Part shown: one piece after another, positions 44,568 through 56,519 of the stretch | Position numbering within the stretch: position 1 is the stretch's first letter | How the letters are laid out: every line of letters begins with the position of its first letter | DNA from: Escherichia phage phiWec188 | Sequence record: LC739537.1 | Length of the DNA: 64,000 nt | Direction: 5' to 3' (one strand) | The notes under the pieces: generated by a model | Database searches by the model: none | Seen by the model: only the letters and a program-made list of their open reading frames with translations | What the model was told of the DNA's origin: nothing | Position numbers and translations under genes: made by a program

Positions 44568-44748
44568 CACAAAACAGTACGGGGAAGGTGAGGTTTATAA
44601 AATTTATAACCGTAAAGGGGATAAGCTTTTAGTAACTATCACCATTCCAGAAAATATGTGCAAGGCAGGTTTGGATCGCCTGTTGTTCTTTAAACACAAT
44701 ATTCCACCTGGTGAATACACAATCAAGAAGGTGCCAATTGTCAAGTAA
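44557..44748 (+). CDS. hypothetical protein
   Basis: 63-aa ORF. Confidence 0.35.
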   Translation: MANNTKQYGEGEVYKIYNRKGDKLLVTITIPENMCKAGLDRLLFFKHNIPPGEYTIKKVPIVK

Positions 44749-44761
44749 AGAACCTAAAGTA

Positions 44762-45316
44762 ATGTGGGGCGAAGGAACGCCCTGGAAAACCCAATCGGAG
44801 TTCTATACATATTTACGGGGATGTTTACGTCAAGCATGGATGCGACACCCAAACAAAATCAAAGTTCTTCAAGCTAAACGTTACAAAGTTGACCGCCTTG
44901 ACAAAGACGGAAATGTGATGTTAGATAAGAAGACGGGTAAACCAAAACAAGTTTGGAACTGCAAATGTGAACTTTGTGGACATACAGGAGGAATGAAAGA
45001 CTTCCAGGTTGACCACATTCATGCAGCTAAAGCCTTGCAATGTTTTCAGGATATTCCTGACTTTGTTTTGCGTTTGATTTATGTCAAAGAAGAAGATTTG
45101 CGTATGGTTTGTAAGCTTTGCAACTCTATCTTAGCCTATGCAGATAAGCAGGGCATCTCCTTCGAGGCAGCAGCCGTTGAGAAGGAAGCTATTGCGATCT
45201 GTCAAGCGAAGAAAGATAAGAAGTGGTTGGAGTCCAAAGGTGTGACACCTGAATCCACAGCAGCAAAACGACGCAAACAAATAGTCCAAATCTTATTGAC
45301 CGAAAGAGGTCTTTGA
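44762..45316 (+). CDS. HNH endonuclease (putative free-standing homing-type nuclease)
   Basis: CELCGH...FQVDHIHAAKA...CKLCN arrangement (CxxC, DH, CxxCN) typical of HNH nucleases; ATG at 44762. Confidence 0.45.
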   Translation: MWGEGTPWKTQSEFYTYLRGCLRQAWMRHPNKIKVLQAKRYKVDRLDKDGNVMLDKKTGKPKQVWNCKCELCGHTGGMKDFQVDHIHAAKALQCFQDIPDFVLRLIYVKEEDLRMVCKLCNSILAYADKQGISFEAAAVEKEAIAICQAKKDKKWLESKGVTPESTAAKRRKQIVQILLTERGL

Positions 45317-45347: not shown

Positions 45348-45965
45348 ATGAAGATAGTTTGTGATTGGGATCTGGTGGTTGCTCCACTGGATGTTGCTTG
45401 GCTGGAATGGTTGGTTAAAGTTAGCGGAGATTGTGTAGGCTTCTGCGGAGCTGTCAAAAATGTTGACTACGATCTTACTAAATACTTCCCAGGTTTCCGT
45501 GAGAAGTTTAACATCGATCCTTACGGCTTTCTGGATAATTCCCATCTCTACGATACAATGGGATGTATCAAACCTATGGCTAACTTCTTAGAAGGTGTTG
45601 TGAAAGAGGGAGATAATGCACTTATTGCAAGTGTGACTAAAGGTGGACACCTTAGCTCAAAACACAAACATGTTTTAAGAACTTTGCCAACCATCGATTT
45701 TGGTAAAGGTTCTGGTAATGGTTTCTTTGCCACAAAAGAAAAATACCTGTTGCCTTGTGATATTGCCATAGATGACAGGGCAGAAAACCTGTTGTATTTT
45801 CCAGACCATGTTGTTAAGATTTACTACAATACGATGTATAAAGATTTGTATTTGGAAGAATTAAAAAAGAAACCAAATGTAGTTGTCACAGGTTTGTACA
45901 ATCAAGCAGAAACCTGTTGGCAAGTTTATTCAATGTTAAAAGAACGAGGAGAAATTAATGTCTAA
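45348..45965 (+). CDS. HAD-superfamily hydrolase (possible 5' nucleotidase)
   Basis: N-terminal KIVCDWDLVVA fits HAD motif I (hhhhDxDxV); sits directly upstream of thyX. Confidence 0.35.
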   Translation: MKIVCDWDLVVAPLDVAWLEWLVKVSGDCVGFCGAVKNVDYDLTKYFPGFREKFNIDPYGFLDNSHLYDTMGCIKPMANFLEGVVKEGDNALIASVTKGGHLSSKHKHVLRTLPTIDFGKGSGNGFFATKEKYLLPCDIAIDDRAENLLYFPDHVVKIYYNTMYKDLYLEELKKKPNVVVTGLYNQAETCWQVYSMLKERGEINV

Positions 45966-46953
45966 TATCAGTGCACAAGTCATCGCCCAGTCTATGAACG
46001 CAGAAGGGCAAGTGATTACAACTTTCGAACTGGAATACCCACGTATCATCCATTCTGAGTTGATGACGCACCGCTTATTCTCCCGCAACGCGGCTTCAAG
46101 CCGTGCTATTCCGGTGAAGACCCTGATTGAAATGGTTCGCAAAGAACCTGCTGCACCTGTTCGTTTTGGTCAACACCAACCTGGGATGCAGGATCAAGGC
46201 GTAGAATATGATGCTCTTATTGGGGCAGGTTACTCAGGTCGTGAGTGGTGGAATTTAGCTGCGCTTAGTGCAGCAAACTTTGCAGAACAAATGGCGGAAG
46301 CTGGTTACGCGAAGCAGGTTTGTAATCGCCTTCTTGAACCATTCCAGAGAATGAAGACGGTTCTGACAGCAACCGAGTATGAAAACTTCTGGTGGCTACG
46401 TGATGACGCTGATGCTGATCCGACTATTGAAGCTTTAGCTAAAGTTATGTTTGAAGCTTATGAAGCCTCTACTCCAGAACTGCTGGCTCCAGGACAATGG
46501 CATACGCCTTACGTAGATCACGTCTACGAGAACATCGGTCTGGAAGGTGATGATGTTTTGGTATTCGCTGGGTATAGCACTACAGATGAAAATGGTGATA
46601 CTGTCATGCTGTCGCTGGAAGAAGCACTTGCAATCTCTTCTTCTTGTTGCGCACAAGTGAGCTATCGTCGTCTGAATGCAACTAAAGATAAAGCTTTGGA
46701 TATCTACGGACGTTTGCTTACTGGTCGTAAAGTCCACGCTTCTCCGTTTGAACATCAAGCTACACCTATGCAAGCAACCTTGGAACTTCTTGGTGAGAAT
46801 TCGTCTGAAGATATTCTTATTAACGTTCCGTGGTATGCAGCTTCTTGGGAAGTAGGTATTACTCACAGCGATCGTAACGAAAAACTGTGGTCTGGAAATT
46901 TCAAAGGATTTATCCAGCACCGTCAGCTTTTAAATAATCATACTAAATGGTGA
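45958..46953 (+). CDS. thyX: flavin-dependent thymidylate synthase ThyX
   Basis: ThyX signature THRLFSRNAASSR (RHR...S...R motif) near the N-terminus; 331 aa. Confidence 0.7.
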   Translation: MSNISAQVIAQSMNAEGQVITTFELEYPRIIHSELMTHRLFSRNAASSRAIPVKTLIEMVRKEPAAPVRFGQHQPGMQDQGVEYDALIGAGYSGREWWNLAALSAANFAEQMAEAGYAKQVCNRLLEPFQRMKTVLTATEYENFWWLRDDADADPTIEALAKVMFEAYEASTPELLAPGQWHTPYVDHVYENIGLEGDDVLVFAGYSTTDENGDTVMLSLEEALAISSSCCAQVSYRRLNATKDKALDIYGRLLTGRKVHASPFEHQATPMQATLELLGENSSEDILINVPWYAASWEVGITHSDRNEKLWSGNFKGFIQHRQLLNNHTKW

Positions 46954-47730: not shown

Positions 47731-49971
47731 GTGATTCGATACGTTACTAAATCAAATGGCAAGACAGAAGAGTTTAATCCTGAAAAACTGCGTAAATGGT
47801 CTGAATTTGCAGCAGGGAAACTGAACTGGTCGGAAATTGAATTAGAAGCTGTGAAACGTTGTTACGATGGGGTGTCTACTCGTGATTTACATAAAGCTAT
47901 GATCGCCGCATGTATTGACAAAAAGACTCAAGCGTATAGCGACATGGCAGGTCGATTGCTTCTCGGTATGATTTACAAACAGGCTCACGGGGGATACCAC
48001 AGTATCCCTTCCCTGTACACCTTCTACCAGGATATGGTGAAGCGTGGACATTGGGCTAAGATGGATTATACCGAAGAAGAAATCAAAGAGATTGGTAAGA
48101 TTGTCAAACACAACAAGAATCTAACCTACGGTTATTCCGTTCTTCGTCAGATGGCAGATAAATACCTGGTTCGTGATGCTGTGAATGATGTTGTTCATGA
48201 GTCACCGCAATTCCTGTTTATTGGTGTGGCAATGCGTGTTATGGAGATCCAGCCTAAAGATCGTCGTATTGACGATATCAAAAAGCTGTACACATATGTA
48301 AGTGATCTTCAGATTAACTTACCATCTCCATATCTGACAACGTTACGTACTCCGATCAAGGGTAGCGCGTCTTGTTGTTTATTCCGTGCAGACGATACAG
48401 CAGAGTCTTTGGCTATTGCAAACTATTTGGCACACGAATACACGTTAAATAATGCAGGGATTGGTGTTAACCTCCAGACCCGTGCAACGGGACAGGGTGT
48501 TAAGAACAACCGTATCATTCATGGTGGTCTTCTCCCTTACCTGAAGTGGATGGAAGATAGTGTAGGAGCTTCTAAACAAGCGAGTCGTGGTGGTAGTGCA
48601 ACGGTTACGTTCACAATCTTGGAGCCAGATTTTGAAGATCTGATTCGACTGAAGAACCCAACCACTCCGATCGATAAGCGTGTTGATAAGCTGGATTATT
48701 CTGTTGTTGTAAACCGCTCCTTCCTTCGCCGTGCTGCTAAAGGTGAAGAGTGGATGCTTGTGAGTTGTGACGAAGCACCGGAACTTTACGAAGCACTGTA
48801 CAAAAGTGAAGAAGAGTTCGATGCTGTCTACGATAAAGTTAGTCGCCGTCGCATCAAAAAGAAAATTGTTAAGGCTCGTGACCTGTTGACTGAAATCATT
48901 GTTCAACGTGCAGAGACTGGACGTATTTATATGTTCTTCGCTGACAACGTAAACAATCACACTCCTTTCCTGGATACCGTGTATCAGTCGAACTTATGTC
49001 AGGAGATCTTTTTACCTACTAAAGCGTTCCATAAAATGACGGATCTCTTTACTGGTGAAAACACAGAAGATCAAGAATTGGCTTTATGCTTCTTGTCCTC
49101 TATCGTTGCTGGGCGAGTTACGCCGGAGCAATACGAAGATGTTGCGTACTACACTGTATTGACGATTGATAACGTTATTGAGACGATGGAATACCCATTC
49201 AAACATAACGAGATCACAGCTAAGGCTCGCCGCTCTATTGGCGTAGGTATTACAAACCTTGCACATTATCTGGCAAGCAACTTTGTAACCTATTCTGATC
49301 CTTATGCGAAGAAGCTGATGCATGAATTAGCAGAACGTCATTACTTCTGGTTGGCACAAGCCTCTCTGCGCTTGGCGAAAGAGAAAGGTAATGCCGAGTG
49401 GATGGATAAAACTAAGTGGCCTCAAGGTTGGCTCCCTATTGACACCTACGCTAAAGCAGTAGATACTATTGGGGACTTTGAACTGAAGCTGGATTGGGAA
49501 GGCTTACGTGCTGGTATCATTGAACAAGGCGGTATCCGTAACAGTGTGCTTGCAGCAGTGGCCCCGAACGAATCAAGTAGCTTGGTGAGTAACACTACCA
49601 ACTCACTCTACCCTGTACGTGACACGATCATGTACAAACAGAGTCAGAAAGGTAACGTACTGTTTATCGTACCGGATTACGAAAAACTGAAAATGTTCTA
49701 TCAGTCGGCGTGGGATACCCCGTCTAAAGATATTGCCGAGATGTACGGACTCTTCACTAAGTTTACGGATCAGGGTATCTCCTGTGATGCTTGGTTGGAT
49801 TATTCCAAAATGGAAGGTGGACGTTTATCAGTGAAAGCCGAGATGCAATTTATCTTGACATTTGCAAAGCTTGGTGGTAAATCTCTTTACTACCTGAACA
49901 GCCGAACCAAATCAGCAGAATCTATGGCCCAAGAAGATTCTGACGGTGGTTGTGAAGCTTGTAAAATGTAG
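47731..49971 (+). CDS. nrdA: ribonucleoside-diphosphate reductase alpha subunit (class I)
   Basis: 746 aa; N-terminal ATP-cone-like start, class I catalytic-subunit length; GTG start with GGGAGGAG RBS; followed by nrdB. Confidence 0.8.
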   Translation: MIRYVTKSNGKTEEFNPEKLRKWSEFAAGKLNWSEIELEAVKRCYDGVSTRDLHKAMIAACIDKKTQAYSDMAGRLLLGMIYKQAHGGYHSIPSLYTFYQDMVKRGHWAKMDYTEEEIKEIGKIVKHNKNLTYGYSVLRQMADKYLVRDAVNDVVHESPQFLFIGVAMRVMEIQPKDRRIDDIKKLYTYVSDLQINLPSPYLTTLRTPIKGSASCCLFRADDTAESLAIANYLAHEYTLNNAGIGVNLQTRATGQGVKNNRIIHGGLLPYLKWMEDSVGASKQASRGGSATVTFTILEPDFEDLIRLKNPTTPIDKRVDKLDYSVVVNRSFLRRAAKGEEWMLVSCDEAPELYEALYKSEEEFDAVYDKVSRRRIKKKIVKARDLLTEIIVQRAETGRIYMFFADNVNNHTPFLDTVYQSNLCQEIFLPTKAFHKMTDLFTGENTEDQELALCFLSSIVAGRVTPEQYEDVAYYTVLTIDNVIETMEYPFKHNEITAKARRSIGVGITNLAHYLASNFVTYSDPYAKKLMHELAERHYFWLAQASLRLAKEKGNAEWMDKTKWPQGWLPIDTYAKAVDTIGDFELKLDWEGLRAGIIEQGGIRNSVLAAVAPNESSSLVSNTTNSLYPVRDTIMYKQSQKGNVLFIVPDYEKLKMFYQSAWDTPSKDIAEMYGLFTKFTDQGISCDAWLDYSKMEGGRLSVKAEMQFILTFAKLGGKSLYYLNSRTKSAESMAQEDSDGGCEACKM

Positions 49972-49977
49972 CAATAT

Positions 49978-49999
49978 AGGGGCTTCGGCCCCTTTTTAT
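49978..49999 (+). terminator. rho-independent terminator after nrdA
   Basis: AGGGGC-TTCG-GCCCCT hairpin followed by TTTTATT. Confidence 0.75.
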
Positions 50000-50010
50000 T
50001 GAGGAGGATT

Positions 50011-50349
50011 ATGAGCACACTTATAGTTTTACCTGGAGTAACCCCAATCTACCGACCTGGGTTTAAGCCTCTGTTGATTCGCCCTGAAGATTTTACCCCT
50101 ACTTGGTGTCACCATTATCTTGGTGGTCTTGAAATAGCTAACATGCAGATTTGGGAATCTTTTTATCCAGAAGCCACGGCTTACGCAATAACAAGGGCAA
50201 GAAGTGAAGAAACAGTGACTGTTATACTTGGTAGAAGCGTATGGGAAGCACTGGAAGCTTTCTACCGGAGCAATGATTTTGAGGAAGAAGATATTTTAAG
50301 CTTAAGAGGTTTTTGTGAAATAGTGGAGGATTTAAATGGCAGCAATTAA
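50011..50349 (+). CDS. hypothetical protein
   Basis: ATG at 50011 with GAGGAGG RBS (track ORF begins at TTG 49999). Confidence 0.4.
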   Translation: MSTLIVLPGVTPIYRPGFKPLLIRPEDFTPTWCHHYLGGLEIANMQIWESFYPEATAYAITRARSEETVTVILGRSVWEALEAFYRSNDFEEEDILSLRGFCEIVEDLNGSN

Positions 50350-51421
50350 TTTACATAACGAGACTTACAAAACAGGTAAATATCCAGTTTTCATGGGGGA
50401 ACAGTTGGGGATTTTTGATTCTATCAACGTGACTTACCCTGAAATGCACCGTCTGTATAAACTCCAGAAAGCCCAAGATTGGGATGAGAATGAAGTGGAT
50501 CTTAGTCAGACCCGTAAAGACTTTGTAGCGTGTTCAAAAAACAACTACGATGTTATGATCAAGAACTTGTCGTTCCAGTGGGAGAATGATTCCCTGGCAA
50601 AATCAATCATCACTTTGTTCTCTCCGTTTTTGAGCAACAATGAAGCTTGCGCTATGATGATGAAGCAGAGTGAAATGGAAGTGCTTCATGCTCTAACTTA
50701 CTCGGAGATCGTTCGCCAGTGTACTCCAAACCCTGTAGAAGTTATTGATCAGATTATGGAGAACGATAAGATCTTCAACCGTATGGGTATCATTGCAGAG
50801 ATCATGGGAGATTTGGAAGAAGCAGGTCACAAATATGCACTTGGTCTGATTGAAGCTGATGATAAACTACGTTTGCTGGTCATGAAAGGTCTGGTAGCCC
50901 TGATTGGTCTGGAAGGTATCCAGTTTATCTCTTCTTTCTCGGCAACGTTCGCCTTGGCAGAACAGCAACTGTTTGTAGGTGCTTGTAAACTGATTCAGAA
51001 AATCATGTTGGATGAAATCCTGCATGTTAAAATGGACTATGCTGTCATTGATGCTCTGATGCAAGATCCTGTGTGGAAGAAGATCTACGAAGATAACATC
51101 GAAGAACTTACAACTATTCTGGATACAGTTATCGCTCAAGAAGAGCAGTGGTGTGATTATCTGTTTAGTGAAGGACGTTTTATCGTTGGGCTGAATGCTG
51201 AACTATCCCGTCAATGGGTGTACTTCAATGCGGCTCCAATTTATCGTCGTCTGAAGATGAAGCACAGCTTTAAATCTCCTAAACAGAACCCACTACCTTG
51301 GATGGACATTTGGTTAAACCCAGATCAGATTCAAGCAGCGGCGCAAGAGATCCAGGTTACAGCTTATAAACTGAACTCGGCTAACAAAGATGTTTCTGAT
51401 GATATGGAGTTTGACTTTTAA
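50336..51421 (+). CDS. nrdB: ribonucleoside-diphosphate reductase beta subunit
   Basis: 361 aa; ferritin-like R2 pattern with conserved E/H-containing helices and the acidic C-terminal tail characteristic of R2. Confidence 0.75.
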   Translation: MAAINLHNETYKTGKYPVFMGEQLGIFDSINVTYPEMHRLYKLQKAQDWDENEVDLSQTRKDFVACSKNNYDVMIKNLSFQWENDSLAKSIITLFSPFLSNNEACAMMMKQSEMEVLHALTYSEIVRQCTPNPVEVIDQIMENDKIFNRMGIIAEIMGDLEEAGHKYALGLIEADDKLRLLVMKGLVALIGLEGIQFISSFSATFALAEQQLFVGACKLIQKIMLDEILHVKMDYAVIDALMQDPVWKKIYEDNIEELTTILDTVIAQEEQWCDYLFSEGRFIVGLNAELSRQWVYFNAAPIYRRLKMKHSFKSPKQNPLPWMDIWLNPDQIQAAAQEIQVTAYKLNSANKDVSDDMEFDF

Positions 51422-51775: not shown

Positions 51776-52091
51776 TATCGAGTGGAAGATGGTGCAAGGC
51801 GCACCATATAAGAAATGGGAAGAAGTGTTTAAAGGCGATCCGCAGATTGAAGATCAATTCGATGGGGATTTCAACTGGTTTCTTTACGAAGGTATTGGAC
51901 TGGTAAACGTATCCCCGTGGTATGATGCAGATCCTGAAGATTGTGTCTTTGGTATTGAACTTGCGTCAGGATGCAGCGCACGGGCAATAGACCTCACAAG
52001 CTTGGATAAAAAAGCAAACGAGATCTATTTTGAACTGCTTAATAAGTATAACATTGAAACTGAAACGTTAGTATCACAGAACGTCTGGTAA
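51765..52091 (+). CDS. hypothetical protein
   Basis: ATG at 51765 with GAGGAGG RBS (track ORF from TTG 51738). Confidence 0.4.
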   Translation: MGIDIEWKMVQGAPYKKWEEVFKGDPQIEDQFDGDFNWFLYEGIGLVNVSPWYDADPEDCVFGIELASGCSARAIDLTSLDKKANEIYFELLNKYNIETETLVSQNVW

Positions 52092-52100
52092 GGAGATTAA

Positions 52101-52298
52101 ATGAAAGACCAAATGATTAATGGACCTCGTGTAACAGTTAGTCCTAAAACTTTTGCATCTCTTCTGGACGACACTGGTGAGGTTTATACTTACACAAGAG
52201 ATTCACTGCCTCTGCCTGAAAGTGCACAGGGTTCACGTTCGCTTTTTTATAAAGGTGTTCTTTTTACGGAAGCAAAAGAAGACAAGGAGACTAAATGA
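52101..52298 (+). CDS. hypothetical protein
   Basis: 65-aa ORF directly upstream of rmlB. Confidence 0.4.
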   Translation: MKDQMINGPRVTVSPKTFASLLDDTGEVYTYTRDSLPLPESAQGSRSLFYKGVLFTEAKEDKETK

Positions 52299-53287
52299 GA
52301 TACCTGGTAACAGGTGGTCTTGGTTTCATTGGGAGCGCCGTAGTGCGCTCTCTTTGTCAAGATCCTAAAAATGAAGTTTTTGTTATTGATAAAATGGGCT
52401 ATGCTGCTGACATTGAAAATGTCGGAGATATTACTCATGCGAAACTAAGCATGACAGATCTGGTCGATGAAGCACAAGTTAAAAACTTGGTTGTTGAGTG
52501 TAACCCTGATTTCATCATTCACTTGGCAGCAGAGAGTCATGTAGACAATTCGATCAAGAATCCACGAGCTTTTATCGACTCTAACATCATCGGTACATAT
52601 AATCTGTTAGAAGCTGCAAGGCTTCTTCCTAAGAACAAGCTGAAGATGTTTGTACACGTCTCTACAGACGAAGTGTACGGCGATATGGAGGACTCTGGTG
52701 CTCCCTTTACCGAAGAGACAGCTTATGCTCCTTCAAGCCCATACAGCGCGTCTAAGGCGGCATCTGATCACCTTGTCAAAGCTTGGCACCGTACTTACGA
52801 TTTACCTGTAGTGATAACCAACTGTTCCAATAACTTTGGGCCTTACCAACACCCTGAAAAATTGATTCCAAAAGTGATCACGAACATCTTGACAGACCAA
52901 CCTATTCCCGTATACGGTAAAGGCGATCAGGTACGAGATTGGCTTTTCGTAGAAGATCATGCACGAGCTATTATTTTGGCAGCAACGGGCGGGGAAGTAG
53001 GACAAACCTACAACGTAGGTACACGCAATCCTAAAACAAACATGGAAATCATTTACATGATTTGTGATTACATGGATGCTGTTCACCCATCCTTCGGGAC
53101 ATACCCTGCTTCCGGTTTGATTAGTTTTGTTGAAGATCGTAAAGGTCATGACTTGCATTATGAAATCAATCCTGCTAAGATTGAATCTGAACTGGGTTGG
53201 AAAGCAAACTCTACATTCGAAGAAGACTTGTACTCTACGATTGAATGGTATTTAAATAATCCTCAATGGTGGAGTATGAAGATTTAA
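52295..53287 (+). CDS. rmlB: dTDP-glucose 4,6-dehydratase
   Basis: N-terminus [18 protein letters not shown] (Rossmann GxxGxxG), [21 protein letters not shown] (SDR catalytic YxxxK); near-collinear with bacterial RmlB. Confidence 0.85.
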
Positions 53288-53295
53288 GGAGGGTT

Positions 53296-54174
53296 ATGAA
53301 AGGTATTATTTTAGCGGGAGGAAGTGGAACCCGCCTACATCCTGTAACACGCAGTGTGAGCAAGCAATTGCTCCCTGTGTATGACAAACCTATGATTTAT
53401 TATCCTTTATCAGTCTTGATGTTGTCAGATATTAAGGATATCTTAATCATCACAACCCCAGGCGATCAGGAAGATTTTGAGTATCTTCTTGGAGATGGGT
53501 CTATGTTTGGAATAAAGATCACTTACGCAATGCAGTCTGAACCACGAGGTCTTGCAGATGCTTTCATCATCGGTAAAGATTTTATTGGGGAAGATTCTGT
53601 TGCTCTTATTTTAGGGGATAACTTGTTCTTCGGACAAAGTTTCGGAAAACTCCTTATCCAAGCCAGCGAAATGGTGGATGTTTGGGGTGGAGCTTGTATC
53701 TTCGGGTATCTGGTGAAAGATCCTGAACGATTCGGTGTTGTTGAGTTTGGAAGTAATCGCCAAGCTATCTCTATTGAAGAGAAACCGGAACATCCCAAAT
53801 CAGACTATGCAGTCACGGGTTTGTATTTCTATGACAACTCTGTTGTTCAACGTGCATTGGAAGTAACTCCTTCCGATCGTGGAGAACTGGAGATCACAGA
53901 TATCAATCGCAGCTACCTCGAAGACAGGAAGTTACAAGTGGAAGTTCTTGGAAGAGGATTCACTTGGTTGGATACAGGGACACACGCCAGTCTAATGGAA
54001 GCAGGTCAATTCGTGCAGACTATTGAGAACTGCCAAGGATTGAAGATTGCGTGCCTGGAAGAGATTGCTTTCAAAAAAGGGTGGATTTCTTTAGAGACTT
54101 TGGTGTATCATGGCAACTCATTGAAGAAAACAGAGTACGGGCAATATCTGTTAAAATTAGCGGAGGGTAAATGA
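53296..54174 (+). CDS. rmlA: glucose-1-phosphate thymidylyltransferase
   Basis: [39 protein letters not shown] closely matches the RmlA N-terminal signature; ATG at 53296 with AAGGAGGG RBS. Confidence 0.85.
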
Positions 54175-54731
54175 AAATAAAAGAATTAAGTATTCCTGGT
54201 CTGGTTGTCTTTAAACCTCAAGTTTACAAAGATGATCGTGGTTCCTTCACGGAGACGTTTAACGAGAAGATTTACGAAGAGGTTATTGGCAAACAAACGT
54301 TTGTTCAGGATAACCATTCATTCTCTACTTTAGGTGTTCTTCGCGGAATGCACTTTCAAGTAAATAACCCGCAAGGTAAGCTTGTACGTTGCACACGAGG
54401 TGAAGTTTTTGACGTGGCTGTAGATCTTCGTGAAGGTAGTCCAACCTTCGGACAATGGGAAGGTGTGATTCTTAGTGGGTGTAACAATAAACAGTTGTGG
54501 ATTCCACCTGGCTTTGCACATGGTTTTGTTGTAACCTCTTATGAAGCCAACTTTGAATACAAGTGCACCAACTACTACGATCCGGCATCTGAACGTAGTT
54601 TGTTGTGGAACGATCCTACTGTGAATATTGATTGGGGTTTTGATATGATTTTCAATGATGAGAATTTTGTACCCATCATTTCGGAAAAGGATGCACAAGC
54701 TAAAACACTGAAGGAGCTTATGGGATCATGA
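54171..54731 (+). CDS. rmlC: dTDP-4-dehydrorhamnose 3,5-epimerase
   Basis: 186 aa cupin-type protein; DDRGSF, RGMHFQ and [11 protein letters not shown] match RmlC conserved blocks. Confidence 0.8.
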
Positions 54732-55570
54732 AAACATATTTAGTATTGGGTGGTAATGGTCAATTAGGTCAGGCACTGCGTAAAGTGGTGCCGGAGAATG
54801 TGACTTTGGTGTATCCAGAAAAGCGTGTAGATATCACCAGTTTTGAAGCTGTGCGGAAAGCGATCATGGAAACCCCAAATATTAACGGTGTTATCAACTG
54901 TGCGGCATACACTGCTGTGGACAAAGCCGAGACAGATGTTGATGCAGCTATGGCTGTAAATTTACACGGGGCAGCTAATATTGCTGCCTTCTGTAAGGCT
55001 TGGGATATTGACATGGTGCATATTTCTACTGACTATGTGTTCAACAGCGATAAACCGTTGTTCCATCAGGATGAACCCAACCCTATCAATGTTTACGGGT
55101 TATCTAAAAGTTTGGGTGAAGCTGCTGTTCGTGGTATCTACCATAAAGCTTTTATTATCCGCACGGCTTCTGTGTATAGCGAGTTTGGTAACAACTTCCT
55201 GAAGACTATGGTATCTCGTTACAACGATGGTCAAAGAAACTTCTCGGTAGTTGCAGATCAAACATCTCGACCAACTTATGCCCCAGATTTGGCTAAGATG
55301 ATTTTCCAAGTGTTGGAAACAGGATATAACACCCGTACTTTGCATTACGCTGGGAACATCACTGTTTCGTGGCACCAGTTCGCAAAAATGATATTGACAC
55401 GTATGCCTGAATCTGTTATTATACACCCGACCTCTGCTGCAACCTATAATTCGGCAGCGATGCGACCAGCAAAGTCTATACTAATTACGTCTGGTTGGAA
55501 CGAACCTTCAAGCGTCGGACAAGGTATTGAAGAATCTTTAGCAGTATTACTTAATAAGGAGAGAGCATGA
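54728..55570 (+). CDS. rmlD: dTDP-4-dehydrorhamnose reductase
   Basis: 280 aa; NCAAYTAVDKAE, STDYVF, NVYGLSK...GE, GNNFLKTM and RPTYA correspond to RmlD conserved segments. Confidence 0.8.
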   Translation: MKTYLVLGGNGQLGQALRKVVPENVTLVYPEKRVDITSFEAVRKAIMETPNINGVINCAAYTAVDKAETDVDAAMAVNLHGAANIAAFCKAWDIDMVHISTDYVFNSDKPLFHQDEPNPINVYGLSKSLGEAAVRGIYHKAFIIRTASVYSEFGNNFLKTMVSRYNDGQRNFSVVADQTSRPTYAPDLAKMIFQVLETGYNTRTLHYAGNITVSWHQFAKMILTRMPESVIIHPTSAATYNSAAMRPAKSILITSGWNEPSSVGQGIEESLAVLLNKERA

Positions 55571-55827
55571 ATTTTGTAATTTACGGCAAACCAAATTGCC
55601 AGTTCTGTGAAATGTCCAAACAACTCTTAACTATGCGTGAAAAAGAGTTTGAATATCTGACATTAGATCAAGATTATGATTTTGAAGTGATGACTCAAGC
55701 AGTGATCGCAGCAACAGGAATTGCACCTCGCACCTTCCCGCAGATCTTTGTGGAAGAGCTTGGAGCAGTAACCCACGTAGGCGGTTTTACCGAACTGCGT
55801 GATTTCATGGCTCAAATTGCGGAGTAA
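55567..55827 (+). CDS. glutaredoxin-like protein (NrdH/Grx family)
   Basis: 86 aa with N-terminal CQFC redox motif in a thioredoxin-fold context (VIYGKPNCQFCEMSKQLL). Confidence 0.65.
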   Translation: MNFVIYGKPNCQFCEMSKQLLTMREKEFEYLTLDQDYDFEVMTQAVIAATGIAPRTFPQIFVEELGAVTHVGGFTELRDFMAQIAE

Positions 55828-55832
55828 TATAA

Positions 55833-55982
55833 ATGAAAAGTAAACAGAAACGTAAGATCTTTTCTCGTGCTTTAGCAAACGAGCTTAAGTCCAACACAAA
55901 GAAGACGAAACCGAAACGTGAGACTTCTCCTGAACATTTACTGTTTGACGAACTGGATCACGGAGTAGAGGACGACGAATAA
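55833..55982 (+). CDS. small hypothetical protein (49 aa; basic N-terminus, acidic C-terminus)
   Basis: ATG at 55833 filling the gap between grx and lysozyme; below track cutoff. Confidence 0.3.
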   Translation: MKSKQKRKIFSRALANELKSNTKKTKPKRETSPEHLLFDELDHGVEDDE

Positions 55983-55990
55983 AGGAAAAC

Positions 55991-56494
55991 ATGGCTAAAA
56001 AAGTAGTAGATGAGTTTGACATGTTGGCTGTTGATGAAGGACTGAAGCTGACTGTTTACCCAGACACCTTGGGATATTGGACAGTCGGCATTGGACACCT
56101 CTTAACTAAAAAGAAAGATAAGGCGGAAGCTATTCGTATTCTGGATGCTCTTGTTGGTCGCAAGACTAACGGAGTTATCACAGAGAAAGAAGCCCGTGCT
56201 ATCTTTGCTGACGATGTTGAAAAGGCGAAAAAACAGATTAAAAACAGTTCCATTCTTGCCCCAATTTATGATAAGGTGAGTGAAACCCGTAAACTGGCAA
56301 TCATCAATATGGTGTTCCAGTTGGGGTTAACCGGAACGGAAGGCTTTAAAAATAGCTTGACTTTAATCAGTAATTCGTACTATACTCAAGCTGGTAAAAA
56401 CATGAGAGCCAGTAAATGGTACTCTCAAACGCCAAACCGTGCAGAACGAGTAATCAAGGTTCTAACATCTGGGACTCTTGATTCTTACAACTAA
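55991..56494 (+). CDS. endolysin, T4 lysozyme (gpe)-like muramidase
   Basis: Collinear with T4 lysozyme as recalled: DEGLKLTVYPDTLGYWTVGIGHLLTK (catalytic Glu/Asp/Thr region), NGVITEKEA, INMVFQLG, WYSQTPNRAERVI. Confidence 0.8.
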   Translation: MAKKVVDEFDMLAVDEGLKLTVYPDTLGYWTVGIGHLLTKKKDKAEAIRILDALVGRKTNGVITEKEARAIFADDVEKAKKQIKNSSILAPIYDKVSETRKLAIINMVFQLGLTGTEGFKNSLTLISNSYYTQAGKNMRASKWYSQTPNRAERVIKVLTSGTLDSYN

Positions 56495-56497
56495 CAA

Positions 56498-56519
56498 AGG
56501 GGCGCAAGCCCCTTCTATA
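56498..56519 (+). terminator. hairpin, weak terminator candidate
   Basis: AAGGGGC-GCAA-GCCCCTT hairpin followed by CTAT (poor T tract). Confidence 0.35.

Follow-up and report, generated by a model that had tools for sequence, protein, structure and literature searches.

What does a strictly lytic coliphage do with an activated 6-deoxy sugar? Escherichia phage phiWec188 carries, on one strand of the 64,000-nucleotide stretch analysed here (from record LC739537.1; hereafter the window), a cluster of four ORFs at positions 52295-55570, rmlB-rmlA-rmlC-rmlD, whose products would synthesise dTDP-L-rhamnose. The cluster is already known for the whole phage subfamily, the Stephanstirmvirinae, and the GenBank records of more than 100 related phages carry its annotation. 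In phAPEC8, phi92 and other members, the orthologous genes lie in the same order between nrdB and the glutaredoxin-like gene grx, and this position in the DNA-metabolism region was called 'peculiar' by Olsen et al. (2020), who proposed a role in DNA glycosylation (PMC7552041). Our literature search, which did not extend to the primary papers on the phi92 and phAPEC8 genomes and on Che8 glycosylation, found no functional study of these phage rml or glycosyltransferase genes. New here are the division of the locus into an rmlC-rmlD core and an rmlB-rmlA cassette, the presence of glycosyltransferases across the subfamily, the evidence that DNA is an unlikely acceptor, and the evidence against capture from the host.

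Results

Assignment of the four ORFs to the dTDP-L-rhamnose pathway

The products of the four ORFs (Table 1) all score above the equivalog cut-offs of their NCBIfam families, and Pfam searches returned the same families, in agreement with the first-pass annotation, which had read the ORFs, with the same coordinates, as RmlB, RmlA, RmlC and RmlD. RmlB matches TIGR01181 over its full length (residues 2-327; 429.2 bits, cut-off 365.1); its closest PDB structure is Salmonella RmlB (1G1A, 378 bits), and the GxxGxxG Rossmann motif, the catalytic Thr-Asp-Glu and the YxxxK motif are all present (STDEVYG and YSASK are kept). In LC739539 the gene is labelled rffG. RmlA is a full-length match to TIGR01207 (464.0 bits, cut-off 360.65), aligns over residues 1-290 with its closest structure, 4HO0 (412 bits), and carries the G-G-x-G-T-R-L signature as GGSGTRL. 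RmlC scores 243.6 bits against TIGR01221 (cut-off 155.75), and its cupin active-site residues, in RGMHFQ, QGKLVR and the Tyr of FEYK, line up with the catalytic His, Lys and Tyr of P. aeruginosa RmlC, the closest structure (2IXI, 209 bits). For RmlD the margin is narrow, about 20 bits (244.5 bits against TIGR01214, cut-off 224.05). Its closest structure is that of B. anthracis (3SC6, 172 bits), relative to which GGNGQLG (GxxGxxG), STDYVF and YGLSK, and with them the catalytic Thr, Tyr and Lys, are kept, while the Salmonella enzyme (1KBZ) scores just 95 bits.

Table 1. Features of the rml locus and its surroundings (positions in the window).
Feature	Position	Strand	Product or assignment	Basis and remarks
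ThyX	45958-46953		ThyX	Pfam Thy1, 36.9 bits
nrdA	47731-49971		nrdA	annotation
Hairpin + T-run	49978-50001 (hairpin 49978-49993)	+	intrinsic-terminator-like	downstream of nrdA; AGGGGCTTCGGCCCCTTTTTATTG
nrdB	50336-51421	+	nrdB	annotation; upstream boundary of the rml locus in all relatives examined
orf65	52101-52298	+	65-aa ORF, function unknown	phrog_27883; stop overlaps rmlB start (ATGA)
rmlB	52295-53287	+	dTDP-glucose 4,6-dehydratase, 330 aa	TIGR01181; rmlB-rmlA cassette
rmlA	53296-54174	+	glucose-1-phosphate thymidylyltransferase, 292 aa	TIGR01207; rmlB-rmlA cassette
rmlC	54171-54731	+	dTDP-4-dehydrorhamnose 3,5-epimerase, 186 aa	TIGR01221; conserved core
rmlD	54728-55570	+	dTDP-4-dehydrorhamnose reductase, 280 aa	TIGR01214; conserved core
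grx	55567-55827	+	glutaredoxin-like	Pfam Glutaredoxin, 41.8 bits; start overlaps rmlD stop

RmlD falls in a phage-specific clade, the nearest cellular homologues of which are Bacteroidota enzymes (about 43% identity), and all of its named relatives are called dTDP-4-dehydrorhamnose reductase. The reductase step sets the stereochemistry of the product, which would be dTDP-L-rhamnose; RmlD lies just 20 bits over its cut-off, and dTDP-6-deoxy-L-talose, from a 4-reductase of the other stereochemistry, is a conceivable alternative product.

The junctions are tight: ATGA start/stop overlaps join rmlA to rmlC and rmlC to rmlD and link the cluster to orf65 upstream and grx downstream, and the 8-nt gap between rmlB and rmlA holds a strong Shine-Dalgarno sequence. 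Translation of rmlA could also begin at an in-frame ATG, at 53266, but both GenBank and the Shine-Dalgarno sequence TAAGGAGGGTTATG favour 53296. The dN/dS ratios (rmlB, 0.05-0.07; rmlA, 0.03-0.04; rmlC, 0.16-0.26; rmlD, 0.11-0.13), 0.03-0.26 overall, indicate purifying selection. The evidence supports a complete and intact set of dTDP-L-rhamnose pathway genes, with enzyme activities predicted from sequence.

Distribution of the rml genes among related phages

Gene content in relatives points to rmlC-rmlD as a conserved core, present in practically all phages of the subfamily, and to rmlB-rmlA as an optional cassette that phage lineages have apparently acquired, lost and passed among themselves. 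By tblastn, RmlC and RmlD match 105 and 106 Escherichia phage records, respectively, and RmlB and RmlA match 90 and 87; RmlC and RmlD each match 8 Klebsiella phage records, while any Klebsiella matches of RmlA and RmlB were too few to figure among those listed. ESCO37 and Klebsiella phage phi1_175008 read nrdB...rmlC-rmlD-grx and lack rmlB and rmlA (PMC10269720); nepoznato and anhysbys are further natural phages with rmlC and rmlD only. The contiguous junction of genomes with rmlC and rmlD only is found in 22 Phapecoctavirus records, and all genomes containing rmlB and rmlA, among the matches listed, break at a single base, query position 328. Moreover, the flanking genes of ESCO5 and ESCO37 are 97-100% identical, so that the two form a natural near-isogenic pair differing by the cassette; this and similar pairs are directly usable in experiments.

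Divergence within the locus is uneven. In the comparison with PsgM04F, rmlB has a dS of 0.62 and rmlA one of 0.48, against 0.04-0.06 for rmlC, rmlD and grx. Relative to ESCO5 the pattern is the opposite, and RmlA is 96.6% identical to that of ESCO5, whereas the flanking genes are only 74-94% identical. Compared with Phapecoctavirus as a whole, phiWec190 ('Wecvirus') has a divergent rmlC-rmlD allele (64-66% amino-acid identity to Phapecoctavirus) next to a near-identical rmlA (97%).

Enterobacterial hosts make the substrate of RmlC, dTDP-4-keto-6-deoxy-D-glucose, through RffH and RffG for the enterobacterial common antigen, and an optional rmlB-rmlA cassette fits with a substrate that the host already provides. 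All of the 5,426 E. coli genomes searched hold a homologue of some part of the cluster. RmlC and RmlD would convert the host-supplied intermediate into dTDP-L-rhamnose, and RmlB and RmlA, where present, would make it from glucose-1-phosphate and dTTP, adding flux and removing the dependence on the host. Because the product-specific rmlC and rmlD are conserved and the dTTP-consuming RmlA is dispensable, the selected trait appears to be the end product and not the dTTP pool.

Glycosyltransferases encoded elsewhere in the genome

It had been noted at first that no glycosyltransferase was recognisable, and this holds for the window; the genome, however, encodes four soluble ones outside it, GT1-GT4, at 91206-94346 of the record, about 69 kb from the rml cluster. 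Their genes adjoin those for the primase/helicase and the DNA polymerase, with an endolysin gene just downstream. All four match PHROG glycosyltransferase families (E values from 1e-74 to 1e-138). GT1 and GT2 are GT-B, GT4-like paralogues with two Rossmann-like domains, of which the C-terminal, donor-binding one matches GT-B families, and GT3 is a GT-A, GT2-like protein with a single Rossmann-like domain and a DxD motif; GT4 (187 aa), which has no Pfam match, is a glycosyltransferase by PHROG annotation only, with no fold class assigned. None of the four has a transmembrane-like segment (maximum Kyte-Doolittle 19-residue mean ≤1.37). GT1 and GT3 both match 106 Escherichia and 9-10 Klebsiella phage records, from the clade that also carries rmlC-rmlD.

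The informative searches were those with the GT1 profile and those by fold. Single-sequence searches of the PDB with GT1 and GT3 gave nothing useful, the GT3 profile gave nothing significant, and Foldseek with GT3 against viral structures found generic GT2-like proteins only. Among the top structural neighbours of GT1 are enzymes of lipid-linked or envelope glycans (PglA, WlaC, PimA, HepE, WbnH and WaaG) as well as small-molecule glycosyltransferases. Such folds do not tell the donor or the acceptor. Outside the subfamily, the only phage homologues of GT3 found by tblastn are glycosyltransferases of cluster-F mycobacteriophages (about 25% identity, E about 1e-7), and a distant member of the GT1 family, in Streptomyces phage KimJongPhill, belongs to an SDR-methyltransferase-glycosyltransferase trio that immediately precedes the genes for terminase and portal. 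A Ter-type module adjoins the glycosyltransferases, which raises a small-molecule acceptor as a further possibility.

Discussion

The question of what the sugar is for can now be narrowed: the end product, and not the handling of dTTP, seems to be under selection, four glycosyltransferases occur in the same subfamily, and DNA is an improbable acceptor. Most likely, with a probability that we put at roughly 0.55, dTDP-L-rhamnose is the donor with which GT1-GT4 would jointly assemble a glycan containing rhamnose, on an acceptor other than DNA. That the rml genes and the glycosyltransferases work together is our inference; counting against it are the distance between the two clusters and the fact that their co-distribution is clade-wide, and so amounts to essentially one evolutionary event. 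As to the acceptor, we lean slightly towards a protein, of the virion or otherwise, over a lipid-linked glycan of the host envelope. The KimJongPhill trio next to the terminase and portal genes hints in this direction, and capsid glycosylation has been reported in mycobacteriophage cluster F, the cluster of the distant GT3 homologues (PMC11256854). The parallel with Che8 and the other cluster F1 phages extends to phage-encoded soluble glycosyltransferases and to the distant homologues of GT3. BLASTP of GT1-GT4 against Che8 gp108-110 gave best E values of 0.044-0.07 (GT3, 0.07), none significant, and we keep this link as a weak lead only; nor are Ser/Thr-rich C-terminal tails seen here on the major capsid protein or on the decoration, tube and sheath proteins. 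To our knowledge, the Che8/cluster F1 phages encode no sugar-nucleotide pathway.

Possibly, although we advance this fuller picture only tentatively, the Stephanstirmvirinae carry a self-contained rhamnosylation system, in which the rmlC-rmlD core taps the common-antigen precursor, the optional rmlB-rmlA cassette acts as a booster, and GT1-GT4 place the glycan on virion proteins or another non-DNA target. If so, these would be the first coliphages shown to make their own nucleotide sugar for glycosylating something besides DNA, and chlorovirus and mimivirus glycosylation would have a counterpart among bacterial viruses. PBCV-1 and mimivirus, which infect eukaryotic hosts, synthesise their own sugar nucleotides, UDP-L-rhamnose among them, and decorate capsid or fibrils with their own glycosyltransferases; the phage genes, in contrast, are those for dTDP-L-rhamnose, the host is bacterial, and the system is known from its genes alone. 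Phages of this group are widely used in therapy cocktails, and a glycan on the virion or on the host surface would bear on their immunogenicity and host range.

Remodelling of the host envelope is a doubtful alternative, but one to be taken seriously. Here, dTDP-rhamnose would alter LPS, the O-unit or the enterobacterial common antigen, either through the phage glycosyltransferases, acting on undecaprenyl-linked intermediates, or through host transferases; possible effects are the masking of the LPS-core receptor, leading to superinfection exclusion or to fewer progeny lost to debris, or else the tying up of undecaprenyl phosphate. The lipid-linked and envelope-glycan enzymes among the structural neighbours of GT1 speak for such a role, as do the common-antigen precursor pool on which rmlC-rmlD draws and the proximity of a lysozyme gene to the rml cluster and of an endolysin gene to the glycosyltransferases. 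Moreover, the receptor of phiWec190 is the LPS outer core (waaT, waaG; PMC12548472). Yet no initiating phosphoglycosyltransferase, flippase, polymerase or membrane component is annotated in the phage, the glycosyltransferases are without transmembrane segments, and a strictly lytic phage has little time for a change of surface. Seroconversion of the temperate, GtrABC type was rejected as a model for the same lack of transmembrane-like segments in GT1-GT4 and of annotated membrane glycosyltransferase or flippase genes. We know of no precedent for envelope remodelling in lytic coliphages.

An improbable reading is that the phage manipulates host metabolism without transferring any sugar, buffering or diverting the dTTP/dTDP-sugar pool, for example so as to drain the common-antigen precursor or sustain host rhamnose glycans, with the glycosyltransferases unrelated. 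The cluster does lie among genes for dNTP supply and far from the glycosyltransferases, and rmlC-rmlD alone would divert dTDP-4-keto-6-deoxyglucose from the host. However, it is the C and D steps that are conserved and the dTTP-consuming A step that is dispensable, and the clade of rmlC-rmlD has kept the four glycosyltransferases as well.

In T4, alpha- and beta-glucosyltransferase glucosylate 5-hydroxymethylcytosine in the DNA, and there, as here, GT-B glycosyltransferases lie among the replication genes of a lytic myovirus. A comparable transfer of rhamnose onto a modified base, the idea of Olsen et al. (2020), seems highly improbable, and we regard DNA as an unlikely acceptor. The 94%-identical PsgM04F genome shows neither a ThyA-type hydroxymethylase nor a TET/JBP oxygenase in its PHROG-based annotation, and a Pfam scan of 30 non-structural proteins of at least 157 aa found no base hydroxymethylase or oxygenase; ThyX is the sole thymidylate synthase, several DNA methyltransferases are carried instead, and the glycosyltransferases have better structural matches than the T4 enzymes. 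Moreover, relatives with the full gene set are sensitive to restriction: the BASEL study describes the Vequintavirinae and related phages, phi92-like ones with the rml machinery among them, as 'exceptionally susceptible' to restriction-modification (PMC8594841). Among the candidate roles first listed for the locus, DNA glycosylation is thus the least supported.

Origin and genomic context of the cluster

That the segment is a host contaminant, was recently captured from the O-antigen locus of an E. coli or results from chimeric assembly has next to no chance of being right, since the window is 100% identical to the complete genome of Escherichia phage phiWec190, more than 100 independent phage isolates share the cluster in synteny, and the best match in the 5,426 E. 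coli genomes, in rfbB/D/A/C loci, reaches only about 64-66% nucleotide identity over at most 38% of the cluster; we found no evidence in favour of it. The first-pass annotation had described the cluster as a long-resident phage function, and not a fresh host fragment, from its base composition and ribosome-binding sites, a description that the isolates and the low E. coli identity bear out. The rml genes have a GC content of 0.40-0.43 and a GC3 of 0.35-0.40, like their neighbours, their codon usage correlates with that of the flanking genes (r = 0.89), and the Shine-Dalgarno style is alike. The argument from gene order, B-A-C-D in place of the enterobacterial B-D-A-C, also stands, and even Klebsiella phage 05F01, which diverges most among the relatives, keeps both the order and the position between nrdB and grx. 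The evidence supports a vertically inherited phage module, the rmlB-rmlA part of which has been exchanged horizontally. The phage cluster has the four enzyme families and the catalytic residues in common with the bacterial rfb/rml systems (E. coli/Salmonella rfbBDAC), but lies in a nucleotide-metabolism region and not in a polysaccharide locus, is without adjoining glycosyltransferase, flippase or polymerase genes, and has an RmlD nearer to Firmicutes/Bacteroidota types than to the enterobacterial enzyme.

Pfam searches and annotation confirm that the cluster lies between nrdAB and a glutaredoxin gene, downstream of thyX. The further claim that it belongs to the operon that makes dTTP is weakened by a canonical intrinsic terminator, which follows nrdA (Table 1), so that a single operon of the rml genes with thyX and nrdA is not established. 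A promoter scan gave 26 matches against 27.3 expected by chance, and no operon promoter is claimed. Four small ORFs separate nrdB from rmlB, the last of which, orf65, is missing in ESCO5, where rmlB directly follows a 108-aa ORF. On the other side, grx follows rmlD in every relative examined (ESCO5, ESCO37, Klebsiella phi1_175008 and 05F01), and a lysozyme gene lies shortly downstream of the cluster.

Organization of the rml cluster

In reverse complement, the window matches Escherichia phage phiWec190 (LC739539.1) at 100% identity; this is a ~150-kb myovirus of the Stephanstirmvirinae and the proposed genus 'Wecvirus' (PMC12695924). The first-pass annotation had read four of its ORFs as RmlB, RmlA, RmlC and RmlD, and this is confirmed: all four exceed the cut-offs of the curated NCBIfam equivalog models, each with its own threshold, and Pfam concurs (see the table). 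Alignment to solved structures shows that the signatures of RmlB (GxxGxxG, STDEVYG, YSASK), RmlA (GGSGTRL) and RmlD (GGNGQLG, STDYVF, YGLSK) and the catalytic His, Lys and Tyr of RmlC are kept, and dN/dS values of 0.03–0.26 across the four genes indicate purifying selection. The feature itself is already known, because all four genes are annotated in LC739539.1 and in more than 100 relatives, and because Olsen et al. (2020; PMC7552041) found their presence in the DNA-metabolism region 'peculiar', speculating on glycosylation of hydroxymethylated nucleotides. In the literature searched we found no functional study of these genes. The remaining interest is thus what the cluster does in the phage, a question made directly testable by its division into a CD core and a BA cassette, by four phage glycosyltransferases (GT1–GT4) and by natural isogenic pairs.

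Features discussed in the text, in window coordinates unless stated; record counts are from tblastn against 50,697 phage records
Feature	Position	Strand	Match or annotation	Escherichia phage records	Klebsiella phage records
rmlB	52295-53287	plus	TIGR01181, 429.2 bits (cut-off 365.1)	90	too few to be listed
rmlA	53296-54174	plus	TIGR01207, 464.0 bits (cut-off 360.65)	87	too few to be listed
rmlC	54171-54731	plus	TIGR01221, 243.6 bits (cut-off 155.75)	105	8
rmlD	54728-55570	plus	TIGR01214, 244.5 bits (cut-off 224.05)	106	8
GT1				106	10
GT3				106	9
GT1-GT4	phiWec190 record 91206-94346 (locus L005 16294-19434)	minus	all 'hypothetical protein' in record
ORF upstream of thyX	44711-45316		PsgM04F counterpart annotated HNH endonuclease
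thyX	45958-46953		Pfam Thy1, 36.9 bits
T4-lysozyme-family gene	55991-56494		Pfam Phage_lysozyme, 44.7 bits
hairpin	56497-56516		AAAGGGGCGCAAGCCCCTTC
ESCO5 HNH gene	locus L008 1060-1719		HNH endonuclease
Ter-type module	PsgM04F locus L002 17987-28565 (~phiWec190 record 95.6-106 kb)
KimJongPhill trio	NC_070830.1 1199-3758 (locus L010)		SDR, methyltransferase, GT

A new result is that the cluster consists of two modules, a C-D core and a B-A cassette. ESCO37 and Klebsiella phage phi1_175008 read nrdB, small ORFs, rmlC, rmlD and grx (a glutaredoxin-like gene), without rmlB and rmlA, an absence noted before for ESCO37 (PMC10269720). A junction query finds the contiguous CD-only arrangement in 22 records, and the B-A-containing genomes among the matches listed all break at one same base of it. 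Since the flanking genes of ESCO5 and ESCO37 are 97–100% identical, the B-A difference between these two phages is a clean, recent indel. Divergence along the cluster is also mosaic: amino-acid identity to ESCO5 is 74–94% for the flanking genes, 96.6% for RmlA, 89.7% for RmlB and 64–66% for RmlC and RmlD, and in comparison with the close relative PsgM04F dS reaches 0.62 in rmlB and 0.48 in rmlA against 0.04–0.06 in rmlC, rmlD and grx. Enterobacteria make dTDP-4-keto-6-deoxy-D-glucose via RffH and RffG, for enterobacterial common antigen. Because the host supplies this intermediate, RmlC and RmlD alone should suffice for dTDP-L-rhamnose in any enterobacterial host, and RmlA and RmlB would merely add flux. 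Selection is evidently on the end product, not on dTTP handling.

Glycosyltransferases and the acceptor

That no glycosyltransferase is recognizable holds for the window but not for the genome. PsgM04F (94% identical; PHROG-annotated) has four consecutive 'glycosyltransferase' genes beside primase/helicase and DNA polymerase; in phiWec190 they lie between primase/helicase and an endolysin, ~16 kb outside the window on its left side, with ~69 kb separating them from the rml genes. GT1 and GT2 are paralogues (41.6% identical, both phrog_7162), GT3 belongs to phrog_2456 and GT4 to phrog_14179. Because Pfam matches were marginal, structures were predicted; GT1 and GT2 have GT-B folds and GT3 a GT-A fold, with GT4 unassigned. 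With no transmembrane-like segment in any of them, all four are predicted to be soluble. Two of the families are tiny, with 17 and 35 clusters in a set of 5.8 billion proteins, and almost all members sit on contigs of phage size. By tblastn against the phage records, GT1 and GT3 occur across the same subfamily as rmlCD; this is suggestive of a link between the two clusters but not proof, because it is essentially one evolutionary event.

For the acceptor of the sugar we lean slightly towards protein. A distant GT1-family gene of the Streptomyces phage KimJongPhill lies in an SDR–methyltransferase–GT trio directly upstream of terminase and portal genes, and outside the clade the only phage homologues of GT3 are glycosyltransferases of cluster-F mycobacteriophages. 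However, GT3 shows no similarity to the glycosyltransferases of mycobacteriophage Che8, and the capsid, tube and sheath proteins have no Ser/Thr-rich tails. KimJongPhill is an unrelated actinophage; the SDR is of the nucleotide-sugar type, and the trio looks like a candidate virion-glycosylation cassette. Ranked slightly below protein is the host envelope: several structural neighbours of GT1 act on lipid-linked glycans and the phage uses the LPS outer core as its receptor (PMC12548472), but the phage encodes no membrane machinery. A small molecule is conceivable, because Ter-type neighbourhoods are predicted to make a nucleoside-like metabolite. Such a module (TerD, vWA-TerF-like, TelA, SprT-like and annotated TerC proteins, a weak Macro domain, a ComF-like PRTase and a weak HAD match, with a NADAR-domain protein further on) lies just past the GT cluster and endolysin. 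DNA, also proposed in the first-pass annotation, is unlikely: BASEL describes this group as 'exceptionally susceptible' to restriction-modification even with its 'putative dTDP glycosylation machinery' (PMC8594841), and neither a hydroxymethylase nor a TET/JBP oxygenase turned up in the annotation or in 30 non-structural proteins of enzyme size.

Origin and genomic context

A host fragment is ruled out, and the earlier argument against simple capture from E. coli stands: the closest that any of 5,426 complete E. coli genomes comes is ~64–66% nucleotide identity over at most 38% of the cluster, at loci annotated rfbB/rfbD/rfbA/rfbC. Base composition (GC and GC3), codon usage (r = 0.89) and the style of the Shine-Dalgarno sequences match those of the flanking phage genes, as had been claimed for composition and RBS style. 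The nearest solved structures come from Salmonella (RmlB), Aneurinibacillus (RmlA), Pseudomonas (RmlC) and Bacillus (RmlD). Relatives of RmlD form two groups, ~50 clusters at 47–95% identity, many on ~150-kb phage-sized contigs, and cellular enzymes at ~43%, mostly from Bacteroidota. Even the relative that diverges most, Klebsiella phage 05F01 (37% identity in RmlD), has the same arrangement, nrdB, rmlB, rmlA, rmlC, rmlD and grx, and the locus and its gene order are therefore old within the subfamily. Relatives with 81–94% nucleotide identity, noted for window 52000–56000, carry the names Pseudomonas phage PsgM04F, Acinetobacter phage ABPW7, Klebsiella phage ZCKP1 and Campylobacter phages B15, C3 and A150 in their database records; such host labels look implausible for genomes so similar and may reflect contamination or mislabelling.

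The rml genes are consecutive, as described before, and on one strand, with ATGA overlaps at orf65/rmlB (orf65 being a 65-aa ORF), rmlA/rmlC, rmlC/rmlD and rmlD/grx, and 8 nt with a strong Shine-Dalgarno sequence between rmlB and rmlA. The neighbours also match, with ThyX, NrdA and NrdB upstream and glutaredoxin downstream, but a single dTTP-making operon from thyX to rmlD is not established, because a canonical terminator lies 3' of nrdA. The ThyX homologue is unusually long (331 aa); Pfam Thy1 (model positions 57–190) covers residues 19–173 only, leaving the C-terminal ~150 aa unaccounted for. ESCO5 has an HNH gene between nrdA and nrdB that phiWec190 lacks (window 49972–50335 compared); this gene and the ORF upstream of thyX look like mobile homing-type insertions in the surroundings of the nucleotide-metabolism genes. 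The lysozyme gene lies two genes downstream of rmlD and a second endolysin adjoins the GT cluster, so that both sugar-related clusters are closely followed by a muramidase-type gene. A GC-rich hairpin with no T-run after it separates the lysozyme gene from phoH, immediately 5' of the phoH Shine-Dalgarno sequence; instead of terminating transcription, it could serve RNA stability or processing. GC skew changes from negative (1–32 kb) to positive (32–64 kb) at ~32 kb, where minus-strand structural genes give way to plus-strand early/metabolic genes; synteny with PsgM04F places the tRNA cluster on the structural-gene side of this switch.
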